Positions 3 through 64,000 of a stretch of DNA of 64,000 bases are shown here, one piece after another (the stretch's first letter is position 1; every line of letters begins with the position of its first letter). The notes under the pieces were generated by a model. The model ran no database searches and was not told the DNA's origin. It was given only the letters and a program-made list of their open reading frames with translations. The position numbers were made by a program, and so were the translations under genes. The stretch is taken from the IMG/VR virus record IMGVR_UViG_3300033074_002003. One strand, written 5' to 3'. The DNA is from a virus.

Positions 3-527
3 ATGGTTCGCTACATGCAAGAACATCCTGACGTGGCTGCGATGAAAGCGACACAACTCGCTAGTGGTATGACACCTGAAGTGTACCAGCGGATTGCTGC
101 CTCGGTCCACAAATTCTGGTCTACGTCTCCACTTGCGCCCGAGCTCCGCAAGCGGGCGTCTGATCGCGCGGTAAAGTTACTCGGCGAGAATAAAATTGGC
201 CCGCAAGCCCCGTACAAGCAAGAGAACAAGTTCAACCCATTTACACAACAAGAGGAGCGTATGCATTCGTCGTGGGAGAGTGTGTTCCTTGATACGTGCA
301 TCGAAGACAAGTACCCAGTGACGAAAGATCACAAGATAACGATCCCATACGTTGATGAGAGCGGTATCGAGCGGCAATACATTCCTGACTTCTATGCGTT
401 TGAAGATCGTACTCTGTATGAGATCAAAGGCTTCGCAACAGAACGAGATTTGCTCAAGTGGGAAGCAGCGCGACAGTGGTGTGAACAGCACGGAATACAG
501 TTTGCCGTGCTGGAAGAGATGACATAA
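3..527 (+). CDS. Homing-endonuclease-like protein, possibly 5'-truncated at the window edge. Its C-terminal PD-(D/E)XK-type nuclease motif (PDF...EIKG) resembles the C-terminus of the 13681..14664 paralog.
   Basis: ORF track. The motif YIPDFYAFEDRTLYEIKGF matches the PD-(D/E)XK pattern and resembles FYVPDFIVH...IVEVKP in the 13681..14664 protein. Confidence 0.4.
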   Translation: MVRYMQEHPDVAAMKATQLASGMTPEVYQRIAASVHKFWSTSPLAPELRKRASDRAVKLLGENKIGPQAPYKQENKFNPFTQQEERMHSSWESVFLDTCIEDKYPVTKDHKITIPYVDESGIERQYIPDFYAFEDRTLYEIKGFATERDLLKWEAARQWCEQHGIQFAVLEEMT

Positions 528-7226: not shown

Positions 7227-7260
7227 TGCCCGTGTCATACGTAACCATATGACACGGGCA
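7227..7260 (+). promoter_or_regulatory. A 13-bp perfect inverted repeat (TGCCCGTGTCATA - 8 nt - TATGACACGGGCA) whose right arm contains the ATG of the patatin-like gene. Candidate translational attenuator and/or terminator for the upstream gene.
   Basis: Read directly from the sequence. The right arm spans 7248..7260 and the ATG is at 7249..7251. Confidence 0.5.
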
Positions 7261-8118
7261 TTGGTACTTTCTGGGGGTGCTTGCAAGGGAAGCTATCAGG
7301 TCGGCGTGCTCCGCAAGTGGATGCTTGAGGAGCGCCGAGAGTACGACATCTTCTGTGGAGTCTCTGTCGGCGCGCTCAATGTTTCGCTCCTCGCGCACTA
7401 CAGGGACTCGCGCGAGGCACAGTTCGCTCTCGAAAATGTGTGGAGGCATCACGTAAGCAATGACGCGATCTATCGGAGGTGGTTCCCATTTGGGAGGGTC
7501 TCTGGCCTCTGGAAACACTCGCTATTCGACTCGTCTCCCCTCAGAGAGCTCGTCATGTCTCGCATTGATGTGCAGAAGATCAGGGAGTCAGGAAAGAGAC
7601 TGTCTGTCGGAGCTGTCTGTCTTGAGACCGGAGAGAAGGTGTTCGGCACTGAGGAGGACGATAACCTCGCCGAATGGGTCCTTGCGTCAGCGAGCTATCC
7701 GGTTTTTTTCACACCCGTGAACATCGGTGGCAGGTTCTGGTTCGACGGTGCGGTGAAAAACATGACGCCGCTCGGCAGAGCGATCGAGCTCGGCGCGACC
7801 GAAATAGACATGATCGTGTGTAGCAATCCTGATGTGCAGCGTCCGGTTCCGCAGCAACAGAAGTCTTTTCCGCTGTACAGGCAGATTTCGCGCGTCGTTG
7901 ACGTGATGTCGGACCAGGTGCTGCGGACAGACATGCAAATCACGTCACTGAAGAACCAGCTCTCACGAGCCCGCGGCGACCTCAGACCAGTGACAGTCAG
8001 GTACGTCCAACCCGCAGAGCGACTCACAGAAAATTCGTTCGACTTCGATCCTAAGACGATATCCAAGATGATCGAAAAGGGCTATAGAGATGCCTCTGAT
8101 GGAACTCTGATCCTCTGA
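7249..8118 (+). CDS. Patatin-like phospholipase.
   Basis: An oxyanion GGxxKG-like motif (LSGGACKGSYQVGVL), a GxSxG nucleophile (GVSVGA) and a DGA catalytic Asp (FDGAV) appear in canonical patatin order. Confidence 0.8.
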   Translation: MTRALVLSGGACKGSYQVGVLRKWMLEERREYDIFCGVSVGALNVSLLAHYRDSREAQFALENVWRHHVSNDAIYRRWFPFGRVSGLWKHSLFDSSPLRELVMSRIDVQKIRESGKRLSVGAVCLETGEKVFGTEEDDNLAEWVLASASYPVFFTPVNIGGRFWFDGAVKNMTPLGRAIELGATEIDMIVCSNPDVQRPVPQQQKSFPLYRQISRVVDVMSDQVLRTDMQITSLKNQLSRARGDLRPVTVRYVQPAERLTENSFDFDPKTISKMIEKGYRDASDGTLIL

Positions 8119-8615: not shown

Positions 8616-8689
8616 GGACACGTAGTCTAACTGGCAGCGATGGCCGACTCAAAATCAGCAGTGTGTGGGTTCGAATCCCACCGTGTCCA
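8616..8689 (+). tRNA. tRNA with anticodon CAA. It has type I (short variable arm) geometry, a mismatch in the D-stem and a C-A mismatch in the anticodon stem, so it is non-canonical for tRNA-Leu.
   Basis: Hand-folded. The acceptor pairs GGACACG with CGTGTCC, the T-arm is GTGGG-TTCGAAT-CCCAC, the anticodon loop is CTCAAAA (U33, A37) and the discriminator is A. Confidence 0.5.
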
Positions 8690-8697
8690 CGACAAAT

Positions 8698-8769
8698 AGG
8701 CCCGTGATGTAGCTGGAAGCATTGACGATTCCAAATCGTTACGCGCAGGTTCGAATCCTGCCGGGTCTG
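8698..8769 (+). tRNA. tRNA-Trp (anticodon CCA).
   Basis: Hand-folded. The acceptor pairs AGGCCCG with CGGGTCT (one G-U), the D-arm is ATGT-AGCTGGAA-GCAT, the anticodon arm is GACGA-TTCCAAA-TCGTT and the T-arm is GCAGG-TTCGAAT-CCTGC. Total length is 72 nt. Confidence 0.8.
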
Positions 8770-8776
8770 CGAAAAT

Positions 8777-8848
8777 GTCCCTGTAGCTCAGGAGAAGAGC
8801 GGGCGCCTTCTAAGCGCAAGGTCGGGGGTGCGAATCCTCCCAGGGATG
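8777..8848 (+). tRNA. tRNA-Arg (anticodon TCT). CCA is encoded immediately 3' at 8849..8851.
   Basis: Hand-folded. The acceptor pairs GTCCCTG with CAGGGAT, the D-arm is GCTC-AGGAGAA-GAGC, the anticodon loop is CTTCTAA and the T-arm is GGGGG-TGCGAAT-CCTCC. Confidence 0.75.
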
Positions 8849-8862
8849 CCAAGGAAAGAAAG

Positions 8863-9069: not shown

Positions 9070-10071
9070 ATGTCTGAATGGCTGCCCGAGGTTGTCAGGA
9101 TCGGTGAGGTATTTCCTCACCCAAATCGAGATCACGCCGATCCGAAGTTGAAATGTGATACGCTTTCGCTGACGATGGTTCACGGTGGCTATCCCGTGCT
9201 CTTTCGTACGGGCGAGTTCAAAGAGGGAGACCTCGCTGCCTACGTGCCGATCGATTCGGTCGTCCCAGAGAACCACCCGCTCTTTTCTTTCCTGGGTGAC
9301 AGCCGCAGGATCAAGGCGAAGAGGATGCGTGGCGTATTCTCGATGGGAATGCTCGTGAGAGCACCGGACGGTCTCGCGGAGGGTTCTTCTGTCGTCGAGG
9401 CACTGAACCTCACGAAGTACGAGCCCAAAGAAGAGACGCTGAAGATGTCGAGGGGTGTGAGCATCCCGGGACCCTCGGGATGGGAATTTCCGAAGTACAC
9501 AGACATAGAAGGAATTAGGCGCTACAAGCACGTCCTCCTCGAGGGTGAGGAAGTCGTCATCACTGAGAAGATCCACGGGCAGAACGCGCGGTTCTGTTGG
9601 GATCCCGACGACAAGAAGCTGTGGGTCGGATCTCGAACGACGATCAAGAAGCGCGACGCGACCGTGAACTGGTGGCACATCGCAAACAAGCTTGATCTGG
9701 AGGAGAAGCTCGCGAAGTTCCCACTCACGATCTTCTTCGGCGAGGTCTATGGCAAGTCGATTCAGGACCTCGCGTACGGACTCGAGCACAAGGATCTTCT
9801 CATCTTTGACACATTCGACGTGAAGACTGGCACGTACAACGACTGGGACGCGACAGTCGCTCTTGTCAAGGAAGCCGGGCTCAATCTCGTTCCGACGTTG
9901 TATCGCGGCCCGTGGCTCGGGTTTGAGGCACACAAACCCCTCTCGGAAGGAAAGTCTACGATCTGTGATCACATACGCGAAGGGTATGTGGTGAAACCCG
10001 TACACGAGCGCCGGGAACACATGGGACGGGTGATCCTGAAATGCGTGGGTGAAGATTACATGACGAGGTGA
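9070..10071 (+). CDS. RNA ligase 2 (Rnl2)-family ATP-dependent polynucleotide ligase.
   Basis: Motif I is EKIHGQN (KxHG), motif III is FFGEVYG, motif IV is LIFDTFDV and motif V is EGYVVKP. A ggag RBS lies upstream. Confidence 0.8.
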   Translation: MSEWLPEVVRIGEVFPHPNRDHADPKLKCDTLSLTMVHGGYPVLFRTGEFKEGDLAAYVPIDSVVPENHPLFSFLGDSRRIKAKRMRGVFSMGMLVRAPDGLAEGSSVVEALNLTKYEPKEETLKMSRGVSIPGPSGWEFPKYTDIEGIRRYKHVLLEGEEVVITEKIHGQNARFCWDPDDKKLWVGSRTTIKKRDATVNWWHIANKLDLEEKLAKFPLTIFFGEVYGKSIQDLAYGLEHKDLLIFDTFDVKTGTYNDWDATVALVKEAGLNLVPTLYRGPWLGFEAHKPLSEGKSTICDHIREGYVVKPVHERREHMGRVILKCVGEDYMTR

Positions 10072-10086
10072 CCGATACATATAAGA

Positions 10087-10953
10087 ATGACATACGAACG
10101 AAATTGTCCTCAATGTGCTAAGCAGATTACGTATAAAAACAAGCGTGTCTGTGAACGTGCCGAAGAATCAGGAAAACTCTGTGGATCGTGCGCTCGCAAA
10201 GAAGTATGGAATAGAGCTGATAGCTCATTTCGTTCTGATGTCACATGTGCAAAACGCAGCAAAGGGATGAAAGAAGCCTGGAAACGTCCTGATCATGGTA
10301 GAAAAAGCGAAGCATCAAAACGCTCATTCTCCGAGAAACGCAGAGCAATGCGTGAAGATCCCACTGCAGTTTACAACACAAAGAGTTTTCGTGACAAAGT
10401 ATCACAAGGTGTACGTACTGCACTTTCGAGTTCATTGACGAGGATGCTCGCGTCTGATGTTATTGCACGACGAAATGCATCAATAAAAAAGATGTGGACA
10501 GTTGAACGTCGAGATCAACATCGTGAACTGATGACTCGTTTGTGGAGTGTGACAAAAACTCCTTGGGAACACGAAAAAGGTTGTTGTGTTTCACAGTTTG
10601 AATTGAAATTTAAAGACGCTCTGCGAGAAAATGGTTTCTATCACTCTTCCGAACGTTCTGGATCGCTACGATGCATCGATCGATATATTCCTGACTACGT
10701 CGATCATGTGACAAAGCGTGTCGTTGAATTCAATGGCGACTATTGGCACTGTAATCCTAAGCATGAAGTGTTCGGAGATCCGACGTGGTACAACAAGAGT
10801 ATCAAAATGACTTCTCAAGAGAGATGGGAACATGACAAACGCCGCGAAGCAGTGATCTGCGAACATGGGTTTCACGTGATCGTAATTTGGGAAAGTGAAG
10901 CTAGTGATGAAACAAGCGTACTTTTGCGTGTCCAATCATCTGGTTCAATTTGA
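10087..10953 (+). CDS. Free-standing homing-endonuclease-like protein: N-terminal Cys cluster, NUMOD3-like repeats and a C-terminal Vsr-like nuclease domain.
   Basis: The N-terminus carries CPQC...CGSC. Repeats of the S.E.KR..S..G type follow. The C-terminus reads EFNGDYWHCNP...W..K...RWEHDKRREAVICEHGFHVIVIWESE, a Vsr/PD-(D/E)XK signature. GC content is visibly lower than in the flanks. Confidence 0.7.
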   Translation: MTYERNCPQCAKQITYKNKRVCERAEESGKLCGSCARKEVWNRADSSFRSDVTCAKRSKGMKEAWKRPDHGRKSEASKRSFSEKRRAMREDPTAVYNTKSFRDKVSQGVRTALSSSLTRMLASDVIARRNASIKKMWTVERRDQHRELMTRLWSVTKTPWEHEKGCCVSQFELKFKDALRENGFYHSSERSGSLRCIDRYIPDYVDHVTKRVVEFNGDYWHCNPKHEVFGDPTWYNKSIKMTSQERWEHDKRREAVICEHGFHVIVIWESEASDETSVLLRVQSSGSI

Positions 10954-11079: not shown

Positions 11080-11340
11080 ATGTCAGTAGAGAAGTATACG
11101 CGCCGCCGCGTCACGAACAAGGACGCGAGGATCGTCACAGAGTACAACAGCGGTGCACGCATCACCCGTACCGCTTTCAGGAGCGAGGGCACGTTGAAGG
11201 TGAGCGTGAAGACGCAGGACAACTTCACCTCGCTCAGGGTTCGCTTCCCCGATGGGTTTCACGAGTACTTCAATGGTCGCGAGGCCCGCACCATCTACCG
11301 CGCTCTGAAGGCGCACTACAGCCAGTTCGGCACCGAGTAG
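11080..11340 (+). CDS. Hypothetical small protein.
   Basis: An 86-aa ORF with an aaggaaagg RBS, followed by a terminator. Confidence 0.5.
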   Translation: MSVEKYTRRRVTNKDARIVTEYNSGARITRTAFRSEGTLKVSVKTQDNFTSLRVRFPDGFHEYFNGREARTIYRALKAHYSQFGTE

Positions 11341-11360
11341 TAGCCGTCAGAAGAAGTAGA

Positions 11361-11387
11361 GAAGGGCCCTTCTGGGCCCTTCTTGTT
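11361..11387. terminator. Bidirectional rho-independent terminator (GAAGGGCCC-ttct-GGGCCCTTC, then TTGTT) between convergent genes.
   Basis: A 9-bp GC-rich perfect stem has A-rich sequence upstream and T-rich sequence downstream. It sits between the + gene 11080..11340 and the - gene 11389..11766. Confidence 0.6.
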
Positions 11388-11388
11388 A

Positions 11389-11766
11389 TCACGTGACTTC
11401 TATCTTTCGTTTCTGCGAACCTTCTTTTTTCGGTATTTTGAGATGTAGCACGCCTGCATCGTATTTTGCTGTCATAGAGCCCACGTCATAGCTTTCGTTC
11501 ACAACGAACGTCTGCGAAATAGACTTGCTTGTCCCGACGCTTTTCTTTGCAGCGACAGAGACATTACGGCCCGTGCACTCTACGGTGATGTCCTCTTTGA
11601 GACACCCGGGAACGTCAAAGAAAATCGTGAGCCCATTTTCGTCAGTGCTCTTTTCGAACTTGTGATATCGATCGTCGTCAGCAAAGAGTTCAGAACGAAA
11701 CAGGCGAGCGAGCTGAAGTTCAGGGTACATGTTTTTCCTCCGTGCTCGCAACGATAAAACACACAC
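11389..11766 (-). CDS. Small heat-shock protein of the Hsp20/alpha-crystallin family. The start may be the internal Met, which would give 11389..11730.
   Basis: The alpha-crystallin domain is recognisable: FDVPGCLKEDITVE...VSV...SQTF..E...D...AKYDAGVLHLKIPK. Confidence 0.8.
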   Translation of the reverse strand: MCVLSLRARRKNMYPELQLARLFRSELFADDDRYHKFEKSTDENGLTIFFDVPGCLKEDITVECTGRNVSVAAKKSVGTSKSISQTFVVNESYDVGSMTAKYDAGVLHLKIPKKEGSQKRKIEVT

Positions 11767-12548
11767 AACGAAGCGTACATACCATGATCACAGAATTTGA
11801 TCGAAAAATGAAGTCTCTCGAGAAGTTTTCTTCACAGAGCGTTCCCAGTGGGACGTCTTTTGTTGTGAGGCTCGACGGTAGGTCATTTTCAAAGATGACA
11901 GAGAAGCACTTCAGGAAGCCATTTGACCCGCTGTTCAGCGCGATCATGGATAGAGTGACTGATAGCCTCGTGCGTGAGTTTGATTGCGTCGCGGCATTCA
12001 CACAGAGCGATGAGATTTCGCTGCTGTTTGCACCCGAGAACAAGCTATTTGCCGGCCGGCTCGAGAAAATTGTGAGCGTCACGGCATCGCACGCGTCCGC
12101 TGTGTTCACGAGGGCGTTCACTGACATCGTTACGTTTGACAGTCGAGTGATCGTTCCCGACAGCATCGGCGACCTGTCTTCTTACTTCACGTGGAGATTT
12201 GTGGACGGGTGCAGAAATGCGCTTAACACTGCGTGCTACTGGAACATGCGACAGTCGGGTGAGTCACGCCGTGCGGTGTCGAGGCGACTCGAGAGTGTCT
12301 CCCAGAACGAGAAGCTAGAACTTCTTGGGCAGAGGTGGGAGGACATCGATGAGAGGTTTCGGTTCGGACGTGTAACCGTGTGGGAACAATTCGAAGTAGT
12401 GGGATACAATCCCGTATTGAAAGAAGAGAGGAAGGCTACGCGCAGAGAGCTCGTGAGCTTTACCGATCCGAAGAAATTCACAGAGCTGCGTCACAAATGG
12501 TTCGCAGCAGAGAAAGAGAAAGAAGATGCGAGCAGCCTGGCTATCTGA
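11742..12548 (+). CDS. Thg1-like protein (tRNA-His guanylyltransferase family, 3'-5' nucleotidyltransferase).
   Basis: VVRLDGRSFSK...KPFD aligns with Thg1 VVRIDGKKFHEF...KPND. TQSDEISLLF aligns with GESDEYSFIL. FDSRVIVP aligns with FDSRCVAYP. WRFVDG aligns with WRYVDT. Confidence 0.9.
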   Translation: MLATIKHTQRSVHTMITEFDRKMKSLEKFSSQSVPSGTSFVVRLDGRSFSKMTEKHFRKPFDPLFSAIMDRVTDSLVREFDCVAAFTQSDEISLLFAPENKLFAGRLEKIVSVTASHASAVFTRAFTDIVTFDSRVIVPDSIGDLSSYFTWRFVDGCRNALNTACYWNMRQSGESRRAVSRRLESVSQNEKLELLGQRWEDIDERFRFGRVTVWEQFEVVGYNPVLKEERKATRRELVSFTDPKKFTELRHKWFAAEKEKEDASSLAI

Positions 12549-13323
12549 CATTCACCTCACTGACATTGCGGAGGACAGGGCTCTCGCCTTCTGTGAGAAG
12601 GTACGTGAGCACGAGTGTGATTCTGTCTTTCTCACCGGAGACATCTCAGAGTCGCCCGTCCTCCTCCAACACCTGAAGCTTCTCGACGCGAACATTCAGA
12701 AGCCGATCTACTTCGTGCTCGGAAATCACGATTTCTGGTATTCTTCTGTCCCACACATCTACAACACACTCCCACAGGCGATCTCTGGCCTGAACTTTGT
12801 GCGCTGGATGACAAATCTCGGGCCGCTGCGTCTAGATGACGGAGTCTGCGTCGTAGGTCACGACGGGTGGTATGACTGTAGGGCGGGAGACGTCCGCAAC
12901 TCTCGTTTCATCATGCCAGAGTGGAGCAAGCAGCAGGACTACCAGGGTTCTCGTACGATCGACGACATCATTGAGAAGTCCCAGGCGATGTCAAATCTCT
13001 CGATTACACATTTCAAGAAAGTATTGCCAGATGCTATCGCAAGGTTTGACAAGATCTATATCCTCACACACGTCCCACCATTTGAGGAAACGCACTATCA
13101 CGGTGGCGTGCAAGGAACACCACATTACCAGCCCTACTTTGTCAACAAGATCCTCGGTGAACTCCTCAGAACCGCCGCAAGCCTGCATCCGCGTAAGCAG
13201 TTCGTCGTCCTCGCTGGTCACAGTCACGGACGCGTGAGCAAGACAATCCTTCCGAATCTGACCGTGCACGTTGCGGGAGCACAGCATGGCGCGCCCGAAA
13301 TTCAGCCATTTGTATTCACGTGA
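12526..13323 (+). CDS. Calcineurin-like metallophosphoesterase.
   Basis: The motifs VFLTGDISE, LGNHDFW and GHSHG match metallophosphoesterase motifs I to V. The start overlaps the end of the Thg1-like gene. Confidence 0.8.
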   Translation: MRAAWLSDIHLTDIAEDRALAFCEKVREHECDSVFLTGDISESPVLLQHLKLLDANIQKPIYFVLGNHDFWYSSVPHIYNTLPQAISGLNFVRWMTNLGPLRLDDGVCVVGHDGWYDCRAGDVRNSRFIMPEWSKQQDYQGSRTIDDIIEKSQAMSNLSITHFKKVLPDAIARFDKIYILTHVPPFEETHYHGGVQGTPHYQPYFVNKILGELLRTAASLHPRKQFVVLAGHSHGRVSKTILPNLTVHVAGAQHGAPEIQPFVFT

Positions 13324-13339: not shown

Positions 13340-13696
13340 ATGATTAGGGACCTCGTTCGAGCGATCATTGTCGAAGAGCTCGAGTCGATGAAGAACGACT
13401 ACGTCGTATCTCAGGACCTCGCACAGAAGAAAATTCGTCCCGTGACGTCTGAAGACGTCAAGATTCGATTCCCTGAGTTTCATACGCGTGTTGCAGAGGC
13501 GCTTTTTGAAGAAGAACGTATTGCTGACCTTCGCGGGATGAAGTGGGCATTCTACGCTAGCTCGTATTCACGGGTGACGCCATTTGCGTATGATCCCGTT
13601 ACGGGGGCCGTGTGTTACTGGCACGCTCCCTCACAGCGCGTCAAGCAGTCCGAAAATTCAGAGATCGACAACGCGATAATTCAGATGTCTCGGTGA
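13340..13696 (+). CDS. Hypothetical protein.
   Basis: A 118-aa ORF. Confidence 0.45.
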   Translation: MIRDLVRAIIVEELESMKNDYVVSQDLAQKKIRPVTSEDVKIRFPEFHTRVAEALFEEERIADLRGMKWAFYASSYSRVTPFAYDPVTGAVCYWHAPSQRVKQSENSEIDNAIIQMSR

Positions 13697-14664
13697 ATTT
13701 CATCGTCTGACATCTTGAAAAGTTCACATATTTGACCATCATCAGGTTCCCAGACAACAAATGACATGTTGTTTTGCTTGCAGTATAGAGCAGCAGCTTC
13801 AAATTTTGGGATATTTTTGTCACGAAGTTTGGCGGGTTTGACTTCTACAATGAACGTCTTCCCTGCGTTCGTGTGTACGATAAAATCGGGAACGTAGAAA
13901 TGCTCCGTGCCGTCAACACCAGTGTATTGAATGCGTAGCGATTCATATTCCCACGCGATAACCGACTCAGTTTCATCGAGCTCAATCATCGCTTTTAGTT
14001 CATATGATGACTTGTAGCGACACAAGTTTTTCACGGATTTGTGAGGCGCGTATTCTCCACGTTGCCAAATTCGTTCATTGTTGATTAGCTTTTTTGACAT
14101 CACTTCTGAGAGATGCTGTCGAGTTTTTTCATACGTTCCACACAACGCTCTAGTGTTGTATGTTTTCTTGCAAGAAGCGTCACGGCGAATCCTAATTTCG
14201 GGATTTTTGGCCCAAAACTCTTTCCAGTTTTCGCTCATTTTTTGTCTGAACTCAACAGACGTTGTTGCTTTACGTACAGCTTCACTACGTCGTCTGAGTA
14301 CATTGTCTGTCAAAAAATCGCGCATACGTTGTGCACGGAGCTTGCCCTCTTCAGCGTGCTCAGCGTAGTAACGTTTCATGTTTTTTGAATTTTTCACACC
14401 AACCAGTCGCTTGGTTTCTTCTGACATGGACACTTCATTGTGACCCCGAACATAGAAGTTGAAAGTACATGTGACATCATGAAATTTGACAGCAATACCA
14501 CATCCACATTTACACACTGGCCGTTTTCCGCCATGTTGTGTTTGGATTGCATACAGTTCCCAATCGAGATCGTGTTCAGATTTAACATGTTTGCGTAATT
14601 TTACGTTTGAATTGCTTTCAAACGCACAGATTGCACATTTTCGAATTTGCCAAGTCACAGTCAT
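13681..14664 (-). CDS. Homing-endonuclease-like protein with a C2H2-like zinc finger, a CKCGCG motif, NUMOD3-like repeats and a PD-(D/E)XK nuclease domain.
   Basis: The N-terminus carries CAICAF...HVKSEH and CKCGCGIAVKF. The C-terminus reads YVPDFIVH...IVEVKP. The gene is on the opposite strand to its neighbours and is AT-richer than the flanks. Confidence 0.7.
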   Translation of the reverse strand: MTVTWQIRKCAICAFESNSNVKLRKHVKSEHDLDWELYAIQTQHGGKRPVCKCGCGIAVKFHDVTCTFNFYVRGHNEVSMSEETKRLVGVKNSKNMKRYYAEHAEEGKLRAQRMRDFLTDNVLRRRSEAVRKATTSVEFRQKMSENWKEFWAKNPEIRIRRDASCKKTYNTRALCGTYEKTRQHLSEVMSKKLINNERIWQRGEYAPHKSVKNLCRYKSSYELKAMIELDETESVIAWEYESLRIQYTGVDGTEHFYVPDFIVHTNAGKTFIVEVKPAKLRDKNIPKFEAAALYCKQNNMSFVVWEPDDGQICELFKMSDDEIHRDI

Positions 14665-55490: not shown

Positions 55491-58400
55491 ATGACACAAG
55501 CACAGCAATCACAGGCAAAGAGTTTCAGCAGTGACGAAGTTGTAGAGAGAACGGCAGAGTATTTCGGCGGCGATAAGATGGCAGGAGCTGTATTCTTGAA
55601 GTACGCTCTGCCTGCAGATGACGGCGGTTTCTTGGAACTGTCGCCGCCTGACATGCACGCTAGACTCGCTAGAGAATTGGCTCGGATAGAGAACAGATAC
55701 TCTAACCCAATGTCCGAGGAAGAAATTCTAGGGTTGCTCAGCAGGCCCTCGCACAGGAAGCTGGGCATGGGTCCCATCATCCCGCAGGGCTCGCCGATGG
55801 CGGGCATCGGAAATACGAAGCAGTTCCAGAGCATCTCAAATTGCTTCGTGATCGACTCTCCTTACGACTCTTTCGGGGGAATCTTCCATACTGACGAGGA
55901 AGAGGCCGAGATCATGAAGAGGCGCGGGGGTGTCGGATTTGACGTCTCGACGCTTCGCCCGAAAGATGTGAAGACCTCGAACGCTGCTGGCACGACAGAC
56001 GGCATCGGTGTGTTCCTCGAGCGCTACAGCGCGACATGTCGCGGCACCGCACAGAACGGACGCCGCGGCGCGCTCATGCTCACGATCTCAATCAGACACC
56101 CCGAGATCGAGACGTTCATCAACATCAAGCGTGACCTGAAGAAGGTGACAGGCGCAAACATCTCAATCCGTGTCACAGACGACTTCATGGTTGCCGTCGA
56201 GAACGATGAATACTTCACGCTGCAGTGGCCGGTAGACGTGCCGCTCTCAGAGGCGAAGATCACTCGAGAAGTCAGAGCTCGTGACATCTGGGACCAGATC
56301 ATCGATGCGGCCTGGAACAGCGCCGAGCCCGGTGTTCTCTTCTGGGATACCGTGAAGAGAAATTCTCCGGCTGACGCATACGCCTCGGTTGGATTTAGTT
56401 CAGTCTCGACAAATCCATGTGTTGTAGGAGACACGTTGATCGCTGTTGCTGACGGTAGAAATGCTGTGTCAATTAGACAATTGGCAGAAGAGGGTCGCGA
56501 CGTACCTGTGTATTCTACTGATATTGCTACAGGAAAGGTTGAGATCAAGTGGGGAAGATCTCCTAGACTGACAAAAGTTCAAGCAGAGGTTTGGAAACTG
56601 ACACTTGATGATGGCACGTGTGTCATTGCGACACCTGATCACAAGATTTTGCTTAGAAATTTGACGTATGTGAATTTGCAGGATCTCAAGTCAGGTGACT
56701 CAATTTTCCCATTTTCGACGTTCGACTCTAATGGATATCGTCAGGTATGCAATACTGGCGTACCCATGACGGGTGGTGCAAGGCGGAACAGACGTCAATA
56801 TCGACTGATTCACGAATTTTTTAACGGGAGCACTGATTCAAAGTTGTTTGCGATTCATCATTGTGATTTTGATTCTAGAAATGACAGAATCGAAAACTTG
56901 AAAGTGATGACGCACGATGAACATCGAGAACTACATTCGCGCCTAATGATTGGTGATAATAATCCGTATCACAGGATGTCATCTGAATGGAAGCTAAAGT
57001 TTGCAAAACATTCTGGCGAATCTAATGGTAGATTTTCGGGCCACACTAACGAGCAGCTTCTAGAAGCTGGGCGTCGTGTATTCGAAGAAAATGGAAAGAT
57101 AACACGAGCTCTTTGGAAAGAATATGCCAAGAAGCACGCGTTCCCGCAATTTCTTGCAAATCAATTTAGATTTGGAAGTTGGCAAAATTTTGCCAACCAA
57201 GTCTCGAGCAATCACAAAGTTGTTTCTGTTGAAAAAATCGGTACAGAAGACGTTTACAACATCACCGTAGATGACAATCACAACTACCACGTCATCACTT
57301 CTTTGGACGAAAATGGTGTTGTCTCTTCTGGTATTTGTGTCAAAAATTGTGGGGAAATTCCTCTTTCGAGTGGGGACTCGTGCCGGCTACTCGTAATCGA
57401 TCTCACACATTTCGTCGTTTCGCCATTTACCCCCGAGGCTCACTTTGATTTCACTGAGTTTGAAAGGGTCGTCGGAAAGGCCCAGCGACTCATGGACGAT
57501 ATCGTTGACCTCGAGGTCGAAGCAGTCGACAGGATCATCGAGAAGATCGAGTCAGATCCAGAACCCGAGTACATCAAGGCACGCGAGCTCTCACTCTGGC
57601 GTCGAATCAGGGACACTGGGTTGAGAGGACGCAGGACCGGATTCGGTGTCACCGCGCTGGGCGACGCCCTCGCTCTTCTTGACCTGAAGTACGGACAGTT
57701 CGATGCGATCTCGATGACCGATCGAATCTATCGTAGCTTGGCACTGGGCGCCTACAGGTCGAGCGTCGACCTCGCGGAAGAGCGGGGCGCGTTCCCGGCA
57801 TACGATCCGAAGCTCGAGGCCGGTCACCCGTTCTTGAGTCGCATCCGCGCCGAAGATCCAGCTCTCGCAGAGAAGATGGATCGCGTCGGGCGTCGAAACA
57901 TCGCGCTCACGACAACTGCGCCGGTCGGTTCTACCTCGATGCTCACGCAGACTACAAGCGGTATCGAGCCGCTGTTCAAGCCGTTCTACGTCCGGAAAAA
58001 GAAGGTCAGCGGCGCGACGGAACCGAACGCAGAGCTGATCGTCGACGAGATGGGCGATAGGTGGCAGAAGTTCAACGTCTACCATCACTACCTCAAAGAG
58101 TGGATGGACATCACTGGGAACTCTAACATTGACGAGTCTCCGTATGCAGGTGCCTCGGCAAACGAAATCGACTGGCTTGGGTCTGTCGCGATGCAGGCCG
58201 CTGCACAGAAGTGGGTGTGTCACAGCATCTCAAAGACGTGCAACCTGCCGAAAGACGTGAGCCATGATGTTGTGTCTGACGTCTACATGAATGCGTGGAA
58301 GACGGGTTGCAAGGGCTTCACGATCTACAGGGACGAATCTAGAGACGGCGTGCTCGTGTCTGAGGACGCTGTGATGTTCGACGTGAAGAAGCGCACAGAT

Positions 58401-59141
58401 GGCGTTCCCACACGTGAGCTCGAGCGACAGGTCGAGATCGGCGAGCGCTTCGCGAAGTACATGCCGTCCGGGTATGTCTCATTCCTGCAACAGGTGAGAG
58501 ACGCGATCGCCGCGCGCAAAAACCCATCGCTCGGGGCCGTCGTAGATCGCGTAGTCGAGACGAAGCTGCACTCAGAGAAGAGGCCCAAGGAACTTCCTTG
58601 CGAAATTCACCGTGTCAACGTGAGGGCGAAAGACGACAGCGGCGACATCACGACACAGACGTACATCGTGCTTCTTGGCTTGTTGAACGGGAAGCCCTAT
58701 GAGATCTTCTGCGGCCTCTCGGAACACGTCGACGTTCCGAAGAAGTGCAAGAATGGCGTGCTCGTGAAGAATGGCAAGAAGGCCGGCGTCGCGACGTACA
58801 ACCTCAGGATCCCGATCGGAGACGATGACGACGCGATCGTGCTGAAGGACGTCGTGAATCTCTTTGAGAACGCCACATACGGTGCTTTCACGAGGATCCT
58901 GTCCCTCGCGCTGCGCCACGAGATTCCGCTGCAATTTGTTGTGGAACAGCTGCAGAAGGACAAGTACTCAGACATGCAGAGTTTTTCTCGTGTCATTGCG
59001 AGGGTCCTGAAGCACCACATTCTAGACGGTACGCCCGTCTCGGGTGAGAAGAAGTGTGATAGCTGCGGGGCCGAGGGGACGCTTGTCTACGAGGAGAAGT
59101 GTACCAAGTGCACCGCGTGCGGGAACGGGAAGTGCGGATAG
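55491..59141 (+). CDS. nrdJ: Class II (adenosylcobalamin-type, NrdJ-like) ribonucleotide reductase interrupted by an intein immediately before the catalytic NPCGE cysteine.
   Basis: ISNCFV, GGVGFDVSTLRP and a C-terminal zinc ribbon (CDSCGAEG...CTKCTACGNGKCG) are present. The extein junction reads STNP|C...N|CGEIPL. Confidence 0.85.
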   Translation: MTQAQQSQAKSFSSDEVVERTAEYFGGDKMAGAVFLKYALPADDGGFLELSPPDMHARLARELARIENRYSNPMSEEEILGLLSRPSHRKLGMGPIIPQGSPMAGIGNTKQFQSISNCFVIDSPYDSFGGIFHTDEEEAEIMKRRGGVGFDVSTLRPKDVKTSNAAGTTDGIGVFLERYSATCRGTAQNGRRGALMLTISIRHPEIETFINIKRDLKKVTGANISIRVTDDFMVAVENDEYFTLQWPVDVPLSEAKITREVRARDIWDQIIDAAWNSAEPGVLFWDTVKRNSPADAYASVGFSSVSTNPCVVGDTLIAVADGRNAVSIRQLAEEGRDVPVYSTDIATGKVEIKWGRSPRLTKVQAEVWKLTLDDGTCVIATPDHKILLRNLTYVNLQDLKSGDSIFPFSTFDSNGYRQVCNTGVPMTGGARRNRRQYRLIHEFFNGSTDSKLFAIHHCDFDSRNDRIENLKVMTHDEHRELHSRLMIGDNNPYHRMSSEWKLKFAKHSGESNGRFSGHTNEQLLEAGRRVFEENGKITRALWKEYAKKHAFPQFLANQFRFGSWQNFANQVSSNHKVVSVEKIGTEDVYNITVDDNHNYHVITSLDENGVVSSGICVKNCGEIPLSSGDSCRLLVIDLTHFVVSPFTPEAHFDFTEFERVVGKAQRLMDDIVDLEVEAVDRIIEKIESDPEPEYIKARELSLWRRIRDTGLRGRRTGFGVTALGDALALLDLKYGQFDAISMTDRIYRSLALGAYRSSVDLAEERGAFPAYDPKLEAGHPFLSRIRAEDPALAEKMDRVGRRNIALTTTAPVGSTSMLTQTTSGIEPLFKPFYVRKKKVSGATEPNAELIVDEMGDRWQKFNVYHHYLKEWMDITGNSNIDESPYAGASANEIDWLGSVAMQAAAQKWVCHSISKTCNLPKDVSHDVVSDVYMNAWKTGCKGFTIYRDESRDGVLVSEDAVMFDVKKRTDGVPTRELERQVEIGERFAKYMPSGYVSFLQQVRDAIAARKNPSLGAVVDRVVETKLHSEKRPKELPCEIHRVNVRAKDDSGDITTQTYIVLLGLLNGKPYEIFCGLSEHVDVPKKCKNGVLVKNGKKAGVATYNLRIPIGDDDDAIVLKDVVNLFENATYGAFTRILSLALRHEIPLQFVVEQLQKDKYSDMQSFSRVIARVLKHHILDGTPVSGEKKCDSCGAEGTLVYEEKCTKCTACGNGKCG
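56418..57347 (+). mobile_element. Intein of 310 aa with an embedded HNH homing-endonuclease domain inside nrdJ.
   Basis: It starts with CVVGDTLIAV (block A) and ends VYNITVDDNHNYHV...NGVVSSGICVKN followed by C (blocks F/G). HNH reads HHCDFDSRNDRIENL...HDEH. The intein is about 42% GC versus about 58% in the flanking extein. Confidence 0.8.
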
Positions 59142-61459: not shown

Positions 61460-61647
61460 TGTCGTTTCTGAAGGCAATCGGGTGGGTAGTTCTGGGTCTG
61501 TTCGCAATCGAGGTCGCGGGCTGTGCGTGGGTGTTCTCGCAGCACGAAGCCTGTCCGGATGGTTACGATCCCCAGGTACAGGGTTGTAAGGGAATGCCGA
61601 AGGCGGGCGCGTCTTCGTCGGCAACTGACGCAGGGAGTGACGGATGA
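61459..61647 (+). CDS. Small membrane protein with a single predicted transmembrane helix.
   Basis: AIGWVVLGLFAIEVAGCAWVF is a hydrophobic segment. Confidence 0.4.
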   Translation: MSFLKAIGWVVLGLFAIEVAGCAWVFSQHEACPDGYDPQVQGCKGMPKAGASSSATDAGSDG

Positions 61648-62183
61648 TCAACGTTTCATCCACGGCACCCATGTGGACGGGCGGGAATACATTTCCGCTC
61701 GCTAACGGGACAGGTGTTAGACCGCTTACAGTCGATCAGACTGCAAAACCCCTTCGATTCGGAGACGAATCCACGCCAGTGCTTCCGGACATGTGGCCAA
61801 TGCCGTATGAGGTCATACCTACCAAGAAAATCGTGCCAAATCCACCGGCGAGTGAGGAGATCTTGCGGCGGTGGATTTCTATGCAAGGTGAGCACAACAA
61901 TCTCGTTTCTAGCTTTAGGACGGAAACTGTAGGTGAACGTCTCATTGCTGCGATTGACATCCCGGGTGTCAAGAAGGGAACAGTTGATGTATCACTCGAT
62001 GGTGCTGTGATTTCTGTTGTGTGCACGCGAGCTGATATAGGCACGCTTGTCAGCGCGAAATATACAGTCCCGCGCGAGTATTCTGTGTCACCTGACGATA
62101 TCGAGGCGTGGCACGATGACGGTGTTCTCTCGATCGCGTTTATGCGAATTTCGCAGGGACGCGTCAAAATCGGTGTGAAGTAA
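61644..62183 (+). CDS. Hypothetical protein.
   Basis: A 179-aa ORF. Confidence 0.45.
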   Translation: MINVSSTAPMWTGGNTFPLANGTGVRPLTVDQTAKPLRFGDESTPVLPDMWPMPYEVIPTKKIVPNPPASEEILRRWISMQGEHNNLVSSFRTETVGERLIAAIDIPGVKKGTVDVSLDGAVISVVCTRADIGTLVSAKYTVPREYSVSPDDIEAWHDDGVLSIAFMRISQGRVKIGVK

Positions 62184-62199
62184 TTCCTTTCTGAACACA

Positions 62200-62232
62200 C
62201 TGCATGCACTCTGTAATATGAGTGCATGCAGT
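62200..62232 (+). promoter_or_regulatory. A 12-bp inverted repeat (CTGCATGCACTC - 8 nt - GAGTGCATGCAG) whose right arm contains the ATG of the nucleotidyltransferase gene.
   Basis: Read directly from the sequence. This is the same arrangement as the hairpin at 7227..7260. Confidence 0.45.
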
Positions 62233-63308
62233 TTGACGTTTCAGAGCGGACGATTTACCTCGCAGTTCACGGCAGTACCGCGTACGGCACGAATACACCC
62301 GAGTCAGATCTTGATATCAAGGGTGTGTGTGTTCCACCCGCGTGTTACTACACGGGTTTTTCGTATGTCTTCGAGCAGGAAGAGCGTATGGTGTCGAAAG
62401 GTCACTCAGAGGACAGGGTCACCTATTCCGTGGAGAAGTTCTTCTCGCTCGCAGCGGATTGCAATCCCAACATCATCGAGGTGCTGTTCGTTGACGATTC
62501 AGACGTCCTGAAGTGCAATGACCTCGGGAAGCTGATGAGGGAAAATCGCGATCTCTTCCTCTCGAAGAGAGCGAAGCACACATTCAGTGGGTACGCACAC
62601 GCGCAGCTTCACAGGATCCAGACGCATCGCAGGTGGTTGCTCGACGCCTCGAAGTACGAGTCAACGCTTCCAAAGCGCAGCGATTTCGACCTGCCCGAAT
62701 TCGAGTCCAAGAAGGACGCGAACCAGATTCTCACCGCCCTCGCTCTTGTCCAGAAGAGGCTCGACGAGTGGAACGTTGACTTCAGAGAATTTGACAACGC
62801 CGAGAGGATTCGCCTACAGAACAAGCTCGCCCAATTTTTCGTGGAGGCTGGCGTCCTCGGCGATGACCTCTGGTCTCGAGCGGCCCAGGCTGTTTTCGGC
62901 GTGGACGAGAACCTGATCCATCGCCTACAACGCGAACGCGCGTACGCGAATCAGTGCTCTGACTGGGAGAAGTACGCTAACTGGAAGCGTTCGCGCAATC
63001 CGAAGCGCGCTGCTCTCGAGGCGAAGTTTGGGTACGACACGAAGCACGGCGGCCATTTGATCCGTCTCATGAGGATGTGCAAGGAAATCCTCTCAGGACA
63101 GGGCGTCATCGTGAAGCGACCCGATGCCAAGGAGATCCTCGCGATCAGGAACGGCTTGTGGTCGTATGAGAAGCTCATCGAGGAGTCTGAGAAGCTCGAG
63201 GCAGAGTGCAACGCGCTCTACGATACGTCAGCGCTTCCGCACAAGCCGAACGTTGCGCGACTTAATGAGTTGTGTTCGCAGATCGTGACACTTGGGATAG
63301 TGAGGTAG
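62226..63308 (+). CDS. Pol-beta-superfamily nucleotidyltransferase of unknown specificity.
   Basis: VHGSTAYGTNTPESDLDIKGV is a GS-x9-DxD NTase motif. The remaining ~300 aa form a helical C-terminal domain. Confidence 0.65.
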   Translation: MQFDVSERTIYLAVHGSTAYGTNTPESDLDIKGVCVPPACYYTGFSYVFEQEERMVSKGHSEDRVTYSVEKFFSLAADCNPNIIEVLFVDDSDVLKCNDLGKLMRENRDLFLSKRAKHTFSGYAHAQLHRIQTHRRWLLDASKYESTLPKRSDFDLPEFESKKDANQILTALALVQKRLDEWNVDFREFDNAERIRLQNKLAQFFVEAGVLGDDLWSRAAQAVFGVDENLIHRLQRERAYANQCSDWEKYANWKRSRNPKRAALEAKFGYDTKHGGHLIRLMRMCKEILSGQGVIVKRPDAKEILAIRNGLWSYEKLIEESEKLEAECNALYDTSALPHKPNVARLNELCSQIVTLGIVR

Positions 63309-63309
63309 C

Positions 63310-64000
63310 ATGTCACACTTTTCTTGGCCCGAAATTGACGGATTTCACTCGGTGAGGCGAACTCTCGTTCACTACCCGCACCTTTTGGGCGGAAGAAATA
63401 CAGTCACGTACCGTGGGAAGGTGAAGCTTCACGGCACAAACGCGGGGATTTACTTCCGTGCGGGCAGATTCACGGCGCAGAGCAGGACGGCTGTCATTAC
63501 GCCGACGTCTGACAACATGGGATTCGCGAAGTGGGTCGACGAGAGGACAGACGCGCTCGCGGAAGCATACAAGCGCATGGACAGTGACACGGTCATCTTC
63601 GGTGAGTGGTGCGGGCCGAGCGTCCAGCGCGGCGTTGCGCTCTCACAGCTCAAGGAACGCATCTTTGCAGCCTTTGCTGCCTACAAGATCTCCGCTCGCG
63701 GCGAACCGACAGATGCTCTCGTTACTTCTCCCGAAGAACTCGCCAGACTGGTAGGTGGTATCCCGGGAGCGTATGTCCTGCCCTGGCACGGTGACACGTT
63801 CGACGTCCCGTGGCTCGATCCAGCAGAGGAGCTCGAGCCGATCGTTGCGCGCATCAATGACGTTGTCGCTGATGTGGAAACTGTCGACCCGTGGGTGCGC
63901 GATACATTCGGTGTCGAGGGAACGGGAGAGGGACTCGTCTACTACCCTATCTCACACGGCGGGCGCGAGAACTTCACGAACATGTCCTTCAAGGCGAAGG
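63310..64000 (+). CDS. Second Rnl2-family RNA ligase-like protein, 3'-truncated by the window end.
   Basis: Motif I is GKVKLHGTNAGIYF (compare T4 Rnl2 KIHGTN). Motif III is VIFGEWCG. The frame stays open to the last base. Confidence 0.65.
   Translation, partial: MSHFSWPEIDGFHSVRRTLVHYPHLLGGRNTVTYRGKVKLHGTNAGIYFRAGRFTAQSRTAVITPTSDNMGFAKWVDERTDALAEAYKRMDSDTVIFGEWCGPSVQRGVALSQLKERIFAAFAAYKISARGEPTDALVTSPEELARLVGGIPGAYVLPWHGDTFDVPWLDPAEELEPIVARINDVVADVETVDPWVRDTFGVEGTGEGLVYYPISHGGRENFTNMSFKAK

Follow-up and report, generated by a model that had tools for sequence, protein, structure and literature searches.

The locus described here raises the question of what a phage gains from an enzyme that extends RNA in the reverse direction. 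The stretch of DNA under analysis, called the window throughout, comprises the 64,000 nt (64 kb) of IMG/VR virus record IMGVR_UViG_3300033074_002003 and belongs to a genome at least 306 kb long; it contains a gene for a Thg1-like protein (TLP), a member of the superfamily that includes the eukaryotic tRNA-His G-1 guanylyltransferase Thg1. In vitro, the TLPs of bacteria, archaea and viruses repair 5'-truncated tRNAs. The answer favoured in the present work, to which a probability of about 0.6 is assigned, is that the phage enzyme carries out template-dependent repair of the 5' ends of damaged tRNA as part of a counter-defence cassette, and that it does not act in the maturation of tRNA-His. This answer is built on four direct observations, namely the family membership of the protein, its intact active site, its subtype within the TLPs and the conserved synteny of its gene, which is located as follows:

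11784..12548, plus strand: Thg1-like protein (TLP), predicted 3'-5' nucleotidyltransferase, 254 aa; identified by Pfam, PHROG, PDB and AlphaFold2 (AF2)/Foldseek

That this gene encodes a functional enzyme of the TLP family is predicted with near certainty. A preliminary description of the DNA had proposed a Thg1-family reverse-direction nucleotidyltransferase encoded by a phage, in an open reading frame (ORF) at 11742..12548 on the plus strand (268 aa when read from a GTG codon), and had quoted five sequence blocks shared with eukaryotic Thg1 (VVRLDGRSFSK, KPFD, TQSDEISLLF, FDSRVIVP and WRFVDG). All of these blocks are present in the ORF, and the proposal is borne out by Pfam, PHROG, PDB and fold matches as well as by the phage genes that flank it. 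The protein scores 102.1 bits against Pfam PF04446 Thg1 (curated cut-off 29.2; E=2.8e-29) and 33.7 bits against PF14413 Thg1C, the C-terminal domain (curated cut-off 26.3), with both domains at full length, and it matches PHROG 4717, “tRNA-His guanylyltransferase”, at E=2.5e-38; no model in NCBIfam matches it. The best sequence match in PDB is the M. acetivorans TLP (MaTLP; 5axk, E=2e-19, ~30% identity), and further matches are human THG1 (3otb, E=3e-16), the Thg1 proteins of C. albicans and yeast, and the B. thuringiensis TLP. An AF2 model built from 30 homologues has a mean pLDDT of 93.1, and when it is compared with PDB by Foldseek the top 32 matches are exclusively Thg1 and TLP structures (E 4e-17 to 4e-11, TM 0.55-0.76), among which MaTLP 5axk has the highest identity and the lowest root-mean-square deviation; the next matches are adenylyl cyclases, weaker by ~8 orders of magnitude in E-value (E >= 5e-3). 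The model also displays an extra C-terminal helix at residues ~229-252.

The end of the ORF is as first described, while its start has to be moved. Translation probably begins at ATG 11784, giving a protein of 254 aa and leaving the 14 codons from GTG 11742 untranslated, because an identical database protein (P0001, found on 13-21 contigs) is called from the Met at 11784, because 93% of the aligned homologues begin at this position in the start column, and because GTG 11742 overlies the GGAGG ribosome-binding site of a divergent Hsp20 gene.

The preliminary description had asked for the metal-binding Asp residues to be confirmed by alignment, and had named the loss of conserved catalytic residues as the outcome that would speak against a Thg1 identity. 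In an alignment of 115 homologues with MaTLP and segments of human THG1 (hTHG1), in which the phage protein is numbered according to its 254-aa form and residue roles are taken from PMC3701042 and PMC4820378, the correspondence is as follows:

Metal-binding Asp pair: TLP D31 and D76; hTHG1 D29 and D76; MaTLP D21 and D69
Third carboxylate: TLP E77; hTHG1 E77; MaTLP E70
Activation step: TLP K45 and S75; hTHG1 K44 and S75; MaTLP K36 and S68
Transfer step: TLP R29, K95 and R121; hTHG1 R27, K95 and R130; MaTLP R19, K86 and R114
Strictly conserved Arg: TLP R138; hTHG1 R147; MaTLP R130

Both Asp residues are present, together with E77, and all three carboxylates are aligned and invariant across 120 sequences. 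All of the catalytic residues are kept in the phage TLP, nearly all of them in invariant columns; loss of these residues was looked for and not observed, and the Thg1 identity stands. The active site is intact, and the enzyme is predicted to be catalytically competent.

The residues around the active site also bear on the subtype to which the protein belongs. R144-N145 of the phage TLP aligns with R136-N137 of MaTLP, a pair that touches both the 5' nucleotide and the base serving as template; the position of the eukaryotic HINNLYN motif is occupied by CRNALNT, and the eukaryote-specific Asn (N161 in the Sc enzyme, N158 in hTHG1) is replaced by T149. Because of these features, and because the best PDB match is MaTLP, the protein is classed by its sequence as an archaeal/bacterial TLP, nearest to the Methanosarcina TLP, and not as the eukaryotic G-1-adding type. 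Also retained is the beta-hairpin with which TLPs grip the tRNA elbow: the segment GYNPVLKEERKATRREL aligns with that of MaTLP, R220 corresponds to MaTLP R215, and in the model the strands of the hairpin run from 196-209 and from 214-226.

A further segment distinguishes the window TLP and its closest relatives from the rest of the family. In MaTLP, residues F174, N179 and R188, whose role was deduced from the CaThg1-tRNAHis complex, provide a second, His-anticodon-dependent binding mode, which supports G-1 addition and is dispensable for general repair (PMC4820378). The family consensus across this segment is ELLF..GINF...P.WQKRG. The clade to which the window belongs consists of the window lineage itself (window/L094) and four further lineages (L007, L010, L096 and L097), recovered through homologues of the TLP or of the metallophosphoesterase (MPE) encoded next to it. 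In the window TLP and four clade relatives (P0002, P0003, L096 and L097), a 3-residue deletion takes out the Phe, the Asn column holds Arg or other residues, and the WQ(K/R)RG stretch is replaced; the catalytic columns of the same five proteins are still invariant. This pattern points indirectly to loss of the His-specific mode with retention of the polymerase, and it is unlikely that the window TLP reads an anticodon. The preliminary description had reported that no tRNA-His lies in the window and had judged a G-1 role not to be obviously supported. The first statement is correct, in that ARAGORN and Rfam find only tRNA-Leu, tRNA-Trp and tRNA-Arg genes in the 64 kb covered here, out of 306 kb or more for the whole genome, and no tRNA-His is found in the clade loci either; the second is reinforced by the TLP subtype and by the remodelled anticodon segment. 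The label “tRNA-His guanylyltransferase”, which is attached to many phage TLP genes in the databases, is probably misleading for this clade.

The neighbourhood of the TLP gene (first nine lines) and a second group of RNA-repair genes near the end of the window (last two lines) contain the following features:

8616..8851, plus strand: cluster of tRNA-Leu(CAA), tRNA-Trp(CCA) and tRNA-Arg(UCU) genes (ARAGORN; Rfam 54-55 bits)
9070..10071, plus strand: RNA ligase, Rnl5 (NgrRnl/DraRnl) type, OB domain at the N terminus (Pfam RNA_ligase E=4e-27 and PHA02142 OB fold)
10087..10953, plus strand: Vsr/DUF559-like endonuclease ORF (weak DUF559/Vsr matches)
11080..11340, plus strand: orf86, a small basic ORF of 86 aa, conserved, with no family match
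11389..11730, minus strand: Hsp20 small heat-shock protein (Pfam HSP20 E=2.9e-10; GGAGG ribosome-binding site before its ATG)
11784..12548, plus strand: TLP, as above
12526..13323, plus strand: calcineurin-like metallophosphoesterase (MPE) of 265 aa (Pfam Metallophos E=6e-11; PHROG 1649)
13340..13696, plus strand: orf118, 118 aa, conserved, directly after the MPE gene
13681..14664, minus strand: TnsA-like endonuclease, followed by the gene for the gp13 neck protein
62226..63308, plus strand: RlaP (RNA-ligase-associated Pol-beta) nucleotidyltransferase (Pfam PF10127 E=4.9e-19)
63310..64000, plus strand: second RNA ligase, which runs off the window end (Pfam RNA_ligase PF09414 E=4.6e-15; KVKLHGTN motif I)

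The start of the MPE gene overlaps the stop of the TLP gene by 23 nt, and the MPE gene directly follows the TLP gene in all five lineages of the clade, the two genes in the relatives either overlapping by 4-26 nt or being separated by a 2-nt gap. All four relatives (4/4) keep the order orf86 orthologue, TLP, MPE, small ORF (the orf118 orthologue) and gp13, at a divergence which leaves the TLP 47-49% identical (two members scored, P0002 and P0003) and the MPE 45-54% identical. A full-length ligase of the Rnl5 type lies upstream of the TLP in L007, L096 and L097, and is present in L010 as a fragment at the contig end; one to three tRNA genes lie upstream of the ligase in L007, L096 and L097. The orf86 orthologues, which lie between the ligase and the TLP in L007, L010, L096 and L097, are 76-103 aa long and contain an internal repeat with the motifs TRTIYR and EARTIYRTL..HY; neither orf86 nor orf118 has a match in Pfam or PHROG. 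The arrangement looked for in an RNA-repair cassette, a ligase and a phosphoesterase linked to a nucleotidyltransferase with conserved synteny, is found in five diverged lineages, and the core cassette consists of the tRNA genes, the ligase, orf86, the TLP, the MPE and orf118. The Vsr/DUF559-like ORF and Hsp20 are absent from L007, L010, L096 and L097, and of a set of near-identical contigs, L001, L002, L003 and L005 carry the TnsA-like gene of 13681-14664 and L004 and L006 lack it. Because they are confined to the window lineage, and because the TnsA-like gene varies even among near-identical contigs, the endonuclease-like genes and Hsp20 are later, lineage-specific insertions. A second TnsA-like ORF lies at the start of the window (3-527, plus strand), and genes resembling homing endonucleases are scattered through the region.

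The preliminary description had named Rnl2 as a gene to be looked for together with the TLP; the neighbouring ligase, however, is not an Rnl2. Its OB domain, its score against TIGR02306 (the Deinococcus DRB0094 type; E=5.6e-37, compared with 1e-6 against Rnl2) and its best PDB match, the Naegleria RNA ligase (E=1.7e-13, with the motif I sequence KIHG aligned to KLDG), place it in the Rnl5/NgrRnl/DraRnl type. Ligases of this type seal 3'-OH/5'-phosphate nicks in duplex RNA. On its upstream side the ligase gene adjoins the three-tRNA cluster, in which the spacers are 6-8 nt long and CCA is not encoded; the acceptor stems of all three tRNAs are fully paired, with nothing beyond G-U wobbles and no acceptor pair marked as non-canonical by Rfam, and none of the genes overlaps its neighbour. 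At the gathering threshold, Rfam finds these three tRNAs and no other RNA in the window.

One of the three tRNAs is itself unusual. The window tRNA-Leu(CAA), at 8616-8689, is only 74-75 nt long; its type-I-like variable loop has 5 nt, and one pair of the anticodon stem is mismatched, while the tRNA-Leu(CAA) at the matching position is 87 nt long in L007 (3553-3639) and 81 nt long in L097 (4667-4747), with a long variable arm that is shorter in L097. The window lineage has apparently lost this arm by deletion.

The MPE, whose gene overlaps that of the TLP, is presumed to be an RNA end-processing partner of that enzyme. Its motif residues (D8, H10, G38-D39, G66-N67-H68-D69, H182 and G231-H232/H234) are invariant, and its AF2 model has a pLDDT of 94.9. 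The reaction could be the healing of 3'-phosphate or 2',3'-cyclic-phosphate ends, or the trimming of 5'-triphosphate (5'-ppp) or App ends. Healing of 2',3'-cyclic-phosphate RNA ends by an MPE has precedent in CthPnkp and lambda phosphatase (PMC2190708), and some of the repair sets of jumbo phages include calcineurin-like phosphatases (Iyer et al., PMC7824862). A subfamily assignment was attempted and failed, there being no PDB sequence match, generic folds and uninformative cellular neighbourhoods. Homologues of the MPE number in the thousands, as cellular proteins of ~265 aa with generic Icc/CpdA labels; the sole homologue in a GenBank phage (LR745208, 29% identity) has neither a TLP nor a ligase near it.

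About 50 kb downstream of the TLP cassette, the same phage encodes a second pair of RNA-repair enzymes, in which the RNA ligase starts 2 nt after the stop of RlaP. RlaP extends the damaged 3' ends of RNA by one or two nucleotides (PMC12776372), and the phage therefore appears to be equipped for nucleotide restoration on the 3' and 5' sides alike.

Large phages commonly carry TLP genes. In GenBank, 142 phage records hold a homologue, and many of them label it a tRNA-His guanylyltransferase; in IMG/VR, at least 592 contigs encode one, and the best 80 loci were surveyed for genes within 7 kb of the TLP. A related ligase is present in one of these 80 loci (L034, of the Rnl5 type) and an AAA_33 kinase in three. 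In a Pfam census of 119 TLP-flanking genes from ~60 other viral loci, Metallophos ranks first, with three genes from one lineage, followed by NUDIX with two and kinase with one. The three Metallophos genes (L047:7707-8294, L055:7701-8288 and L056:5552-6139) encode a different, 196-aa MPE of the Metallophos_2 type directly downstream of the TLP in an unrelated contig group, and they represent an independent TLP-MPE pairing. A gene for an AAA_33 protein (P-loop, polynucleotide-kinase-like) directly precedes the TLP in L018 (6415-7681), an overlapping AAA_33 kinase-TLP pair occurs in the cellular-looking relative L009 (667-1876), and P0083 is a 397-aa TLP-AAA_33 fusion. Links between TLPs and RNA-end-processing enzymes thus recur with interchangeable partners, and the cassette itself is specific to the clade.

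The interpretation of the locus as a repair cassette is supported by its synteny, by the independent linkages of TLPs to an MPE, a ligase or kinases, and by the RlaP-ligase pair in the same phage. From these we infer that the substrate is tRNA, that the TLP cooperates with the ligase and the MPE, and that the cassette acts in counter-defence. By analogy with the characterised archaeal and bacterial enzymes, the TLP would activate a 5'-monophosphate of the RNA with ATP or GTP, and would then add Watson-Crick-templated NTPs in the 3'-to-5' direction against the 3' strand, so as to refill a 5'-truncated acceptor stem; addition would end at +1, with the beta-hairpin serving as a ruler. The translationally coupled MPE would prepare the ends, and the Rnl5-type ligase would seal nicks in the stem. 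The cassette as a whole would restore host or phage tRNAs that had been cut during infection by tRNA-targeting nucleases of the host, or of a competitor.

A number of observations weigh against this interpretation. The TLP is mostly solitary in other phages: none of the 80 IMG/VR loci contains an MPE of the window type by tblastn, and only 4 of the 80 have tRNA genes near the TLP. General linkages of TLPs to tRNA genes and to the window-type MPE are accordingly rejected, the latter also by a search of the 119 neighbour proteins with a hidden Markov model of the MPE, in which the best E-value was 0.17. In the GenBank phages CBB, BCP78 and Kikimora, the neighbours of the TLP are unrelated genes and include neither a ligase nor an MPE. 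The exact reaction of the MPE is a weak point: its fold matches are generic (PptH, ADPRibase-Mn, GpdQ, purple acid phosphatases, LpxH, SbcD and Dbr1, with TM <=0.66 and identity <=18%), and the two cellular neighbourhoods of MPE homologues that were inspected contain no RNA-repair genes. The cassette of the window lineage is split into two transcription units by Hsp20, which is inverted, and by a hairpin; this hairpin, a strong GC-rich palindrome at 11360-11383 (AGAAGGGCCCAGAAGGGCCCTTCT) located where orf86 and Hsp20 converge, probably acts as a terminator in both directions, and apart from it a scan for promoters and terminators found little beyond shuffle expectation. Neither the scanned ORFs of the window nor the Pfam calls of the clade loci include a polynucleotide kinase, and breaks with 5'-OH ends would therefore not be substrates unless a kinase is encoded elsewhere in the genome. 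No nuclease that makes 5'-truncated tRNAs is known for this system, and no paper was found in the literature in which any phage TLP is tested experimentally.

The alternatives have to be weighed against the same evidence. Maturation or maintenance of tRNA-His, in which G-1 would be added to or restored on a phage or host tRNA-His, is improbable: the conserved ligase and phosphoesterase would be superfluous for G-1 addition, the anticodon segment that corresponds to F174, N179 and R188 of MaTLP is deleted or substituted in the clade, and neither the window nor any clade locus has a tRNA-His. In bacteria, moreover, G-1 is encoded in the genome and kept by RNase P, so that TLPs are not required for it (PMC3701042). 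What keeps this alternative in consideration is that archaeal TLPs can add G-1 opposite C73 and possess the anticodon-dependent second mode (PMC4820378), that the part inspected amounts to just 64 kb, so a tRNA-His may lie elsewhere in the 306 kb or more of the genome, and that a tRNA-His gene occurs within 7 kb of the TLP in 2 of the 80 other viral loci (L057 and L069). A target other than tRNA is unlikely without being far-fetched; the enzyme would in this case lengthen or repair 5' ends of small RNAs or of mRNA fragments, or would mainly make App-RNA for the ligase, with the MPE removing pyrophosphate or App. The first step of Thg1 gives App-RNA, which is an intermediate of RNA ligases, and the idea of a role in ligation was raised by Anantharaman et al. 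(PMC2904730); the top fold matches of the MPE include enzymes that cleave pyrophosphates or diesters (ADPRibase-Mn, LpxH, PptH and Dbr1), and NUDIX genes flank the TLP in 2 of the ~60 other viral loci. The retention of the tRNA-elbow beta-hairpin with its conserved Arg argues against such a target, as do the inclusion of tRNA genes in the conserved block and the fact that the Rfam search of the window yields no candidate RNA besides the three tRNAs.

The same three tRNAs bear on 5'-editing, in which mismatched 5' nucleotides of the phage tRNAs would be removed and replaced. TLPs edit tRNA 5' ends in this way in the mitochondria of the amoebozoans Dictyostelium and Acanthamoeba, and the tRNA genes of the window adjoin the cassette and are packed 6-8 nt apart; their acceptor stems are nevertheless fully paired and the genes do not overlap, so this candidate, very improbable on these grounds, is rejected. 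It is barely credible that the gene is a decaying passenger, or that the Thg1 fold has been turned to another chemistry such as the synthesis of a second messenger, as in the GGDEF/mCpol palm domains. Kinship does exist between the Thg1 palm and the domains of GGDEF and CRISPR polymerases (PMC2904730), and the insertions resembling homing endonucleases mark the region as one in flux, but the residues specific to Thg1 catalysis and substrate binding are invariant across five lineages only ~47-49% identical, the Thg1 and Thg1C domains are both full length, and cyclase structures match the model only at E >= 5e-3.

The tRNA-repair reading can be compared with systems that are already known. The archaeal and bacterial TLPs of known structure (MaTLP, PDB 5AXK-5AXN, and B. 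thuringiensis TLP, 4KGK/4KGM) share with the phage TLP the fold and the domain pair, the metal-binding Asp pair, E77, K45, S75, K95, the R-N pair, and the beta-hairpin with its Arg (phage numbering), and by analogy the chemistry expected to be common to them is the template-dependent repair of 5'-truncated tRNA; unlike them, the window TLP is encoded by a phage, has a remodelled anticodon segment and an extra C-terminal helix, and is coupled to an MPE and an Rnl5-type ligase. With eukaryotic Thg1 (human 3OTB, yeast, and Candida 3WBZ) it shares the superfamily and the carboxylates (Foldseek E ~1e-16), and it differs in having neither HINNLYN nor the eukaryote-specific Asn, T149 standing in its place. 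The annotated phage genes of PHROG 4717, among them those of Pectobacterium phage CBB, Bacillus phage BCP78 and Brevundimonas phage Kikimora, belong to the same family and likewise come from large phages, yet their products are at most 35% identical to the window TLP, and cellular TLPs are closer (38-43%). In predicted bacterial operons that combine Thg1 with a polynucleotide kinase, with or without Macro and RNA ligase genes (Anantharaman et al. 2010), and in the RNA-repair repertoire of jumbo phages (Iyer et al. 2021), Thg1 or a TLP is also linked to end-processing enzymes and a ligase; the window cassette differs from those bacterial operons in having a calcineurin-like MPE in place of the kinase and Macro, an Rnl5-type ligase, the basic orf86, and tRNA genes. 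The T4 Pnkp/Rnl1, bacterial Pnkp/Hen1 and RlaP-ligase systems share a common logic of end healing, nucleotide restoration and sealing of nuclease-damaged tRNA, and the window phage carries an RlaP-ligase pair of its own, with no kinase or Hen1 found. In the three known systems it is the 3' side or the anticodon loop that is restored; a TLP, polymerising in reverse along a template, would instead rebuild the 5' side.

The existence of Thg1/TLP genes in phages and their proposed role in repair are not new, and a PHROG is devoted to the family. An RNA-repair role for Thg1 with kinase and ligase neighbours was proposed by Anantharaman, Iyer and Aravind (2010; PMC2904730), who also described phage homologues, and Iyer et al. 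(2021; PMC7824862) proposed such a role in jumbo phages. The novelty of the present work is modest, and consists of the conserved cassette of Rnl5 ligase, orf86, TLP and MPE beside tRNA genes, a loss of the His-anticodon site that is specific to the clade, the presence of an RlaP-ligase pair in the same phage, and a candidate for experiments. A bolder form of the tRNA-repair reading, and an unlikely one, is that the cassette is a dedicated 5'-side pathway directed against an undescribed class of host nucleases whose targets are acceptor stems or the 5' ends of tRNAs. With its His-anticodon mode lost, the TLP would rebuild the 5' strand, the MPE would make a 5'-triphosphate/App or 3'-phosphate end ligatable, the Rnl5-type ligase would seal the nick, and orf86 would serve as an RNA-binding adaptor. 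If this were true, a physiological role for a TLP would for the first time have been shown outside the organelles of eukaryotes. The clade cassette offers a compact system of four or five genes for asking whether reverse polymerisation counters tRNA-targeting immunity.

The phage context of the TLP is given by genes for a T4-like neck protein gp13, sheath and baseplate downstream of the cassette, and because of these genes the window is assigned to a myovirus, which belongs to an uncultured clade. Contigs with an MPE identical to that of the window reach 305,889 and 329,329 bp, and the phage is on this account a jumbo phage. No near-identical DNA was found among GenBank phages, in which there is no close cultured relative, and a single-sequence scan of IMG/VR for close relatives found none. 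Genes for DNA polymerase A, RecA, DnaB, ThyX and ribonucleotide reductase lie further along the window. An ORF at 61644-62183 (plus strand) is alpha-crystallin-like by eye and has no match in Pfam, and a patatin-like phospholipase gene (7249-8118, plus strand) lies directly upstream of the tRNA cluster. The gene for the ribonucleotide reductase large subunit (55491-59141, plus strand) is interrupted by an intein with an HNH endonuclease (Intein_splicing E=1e-12; HNH_3 E=3.6e-6).

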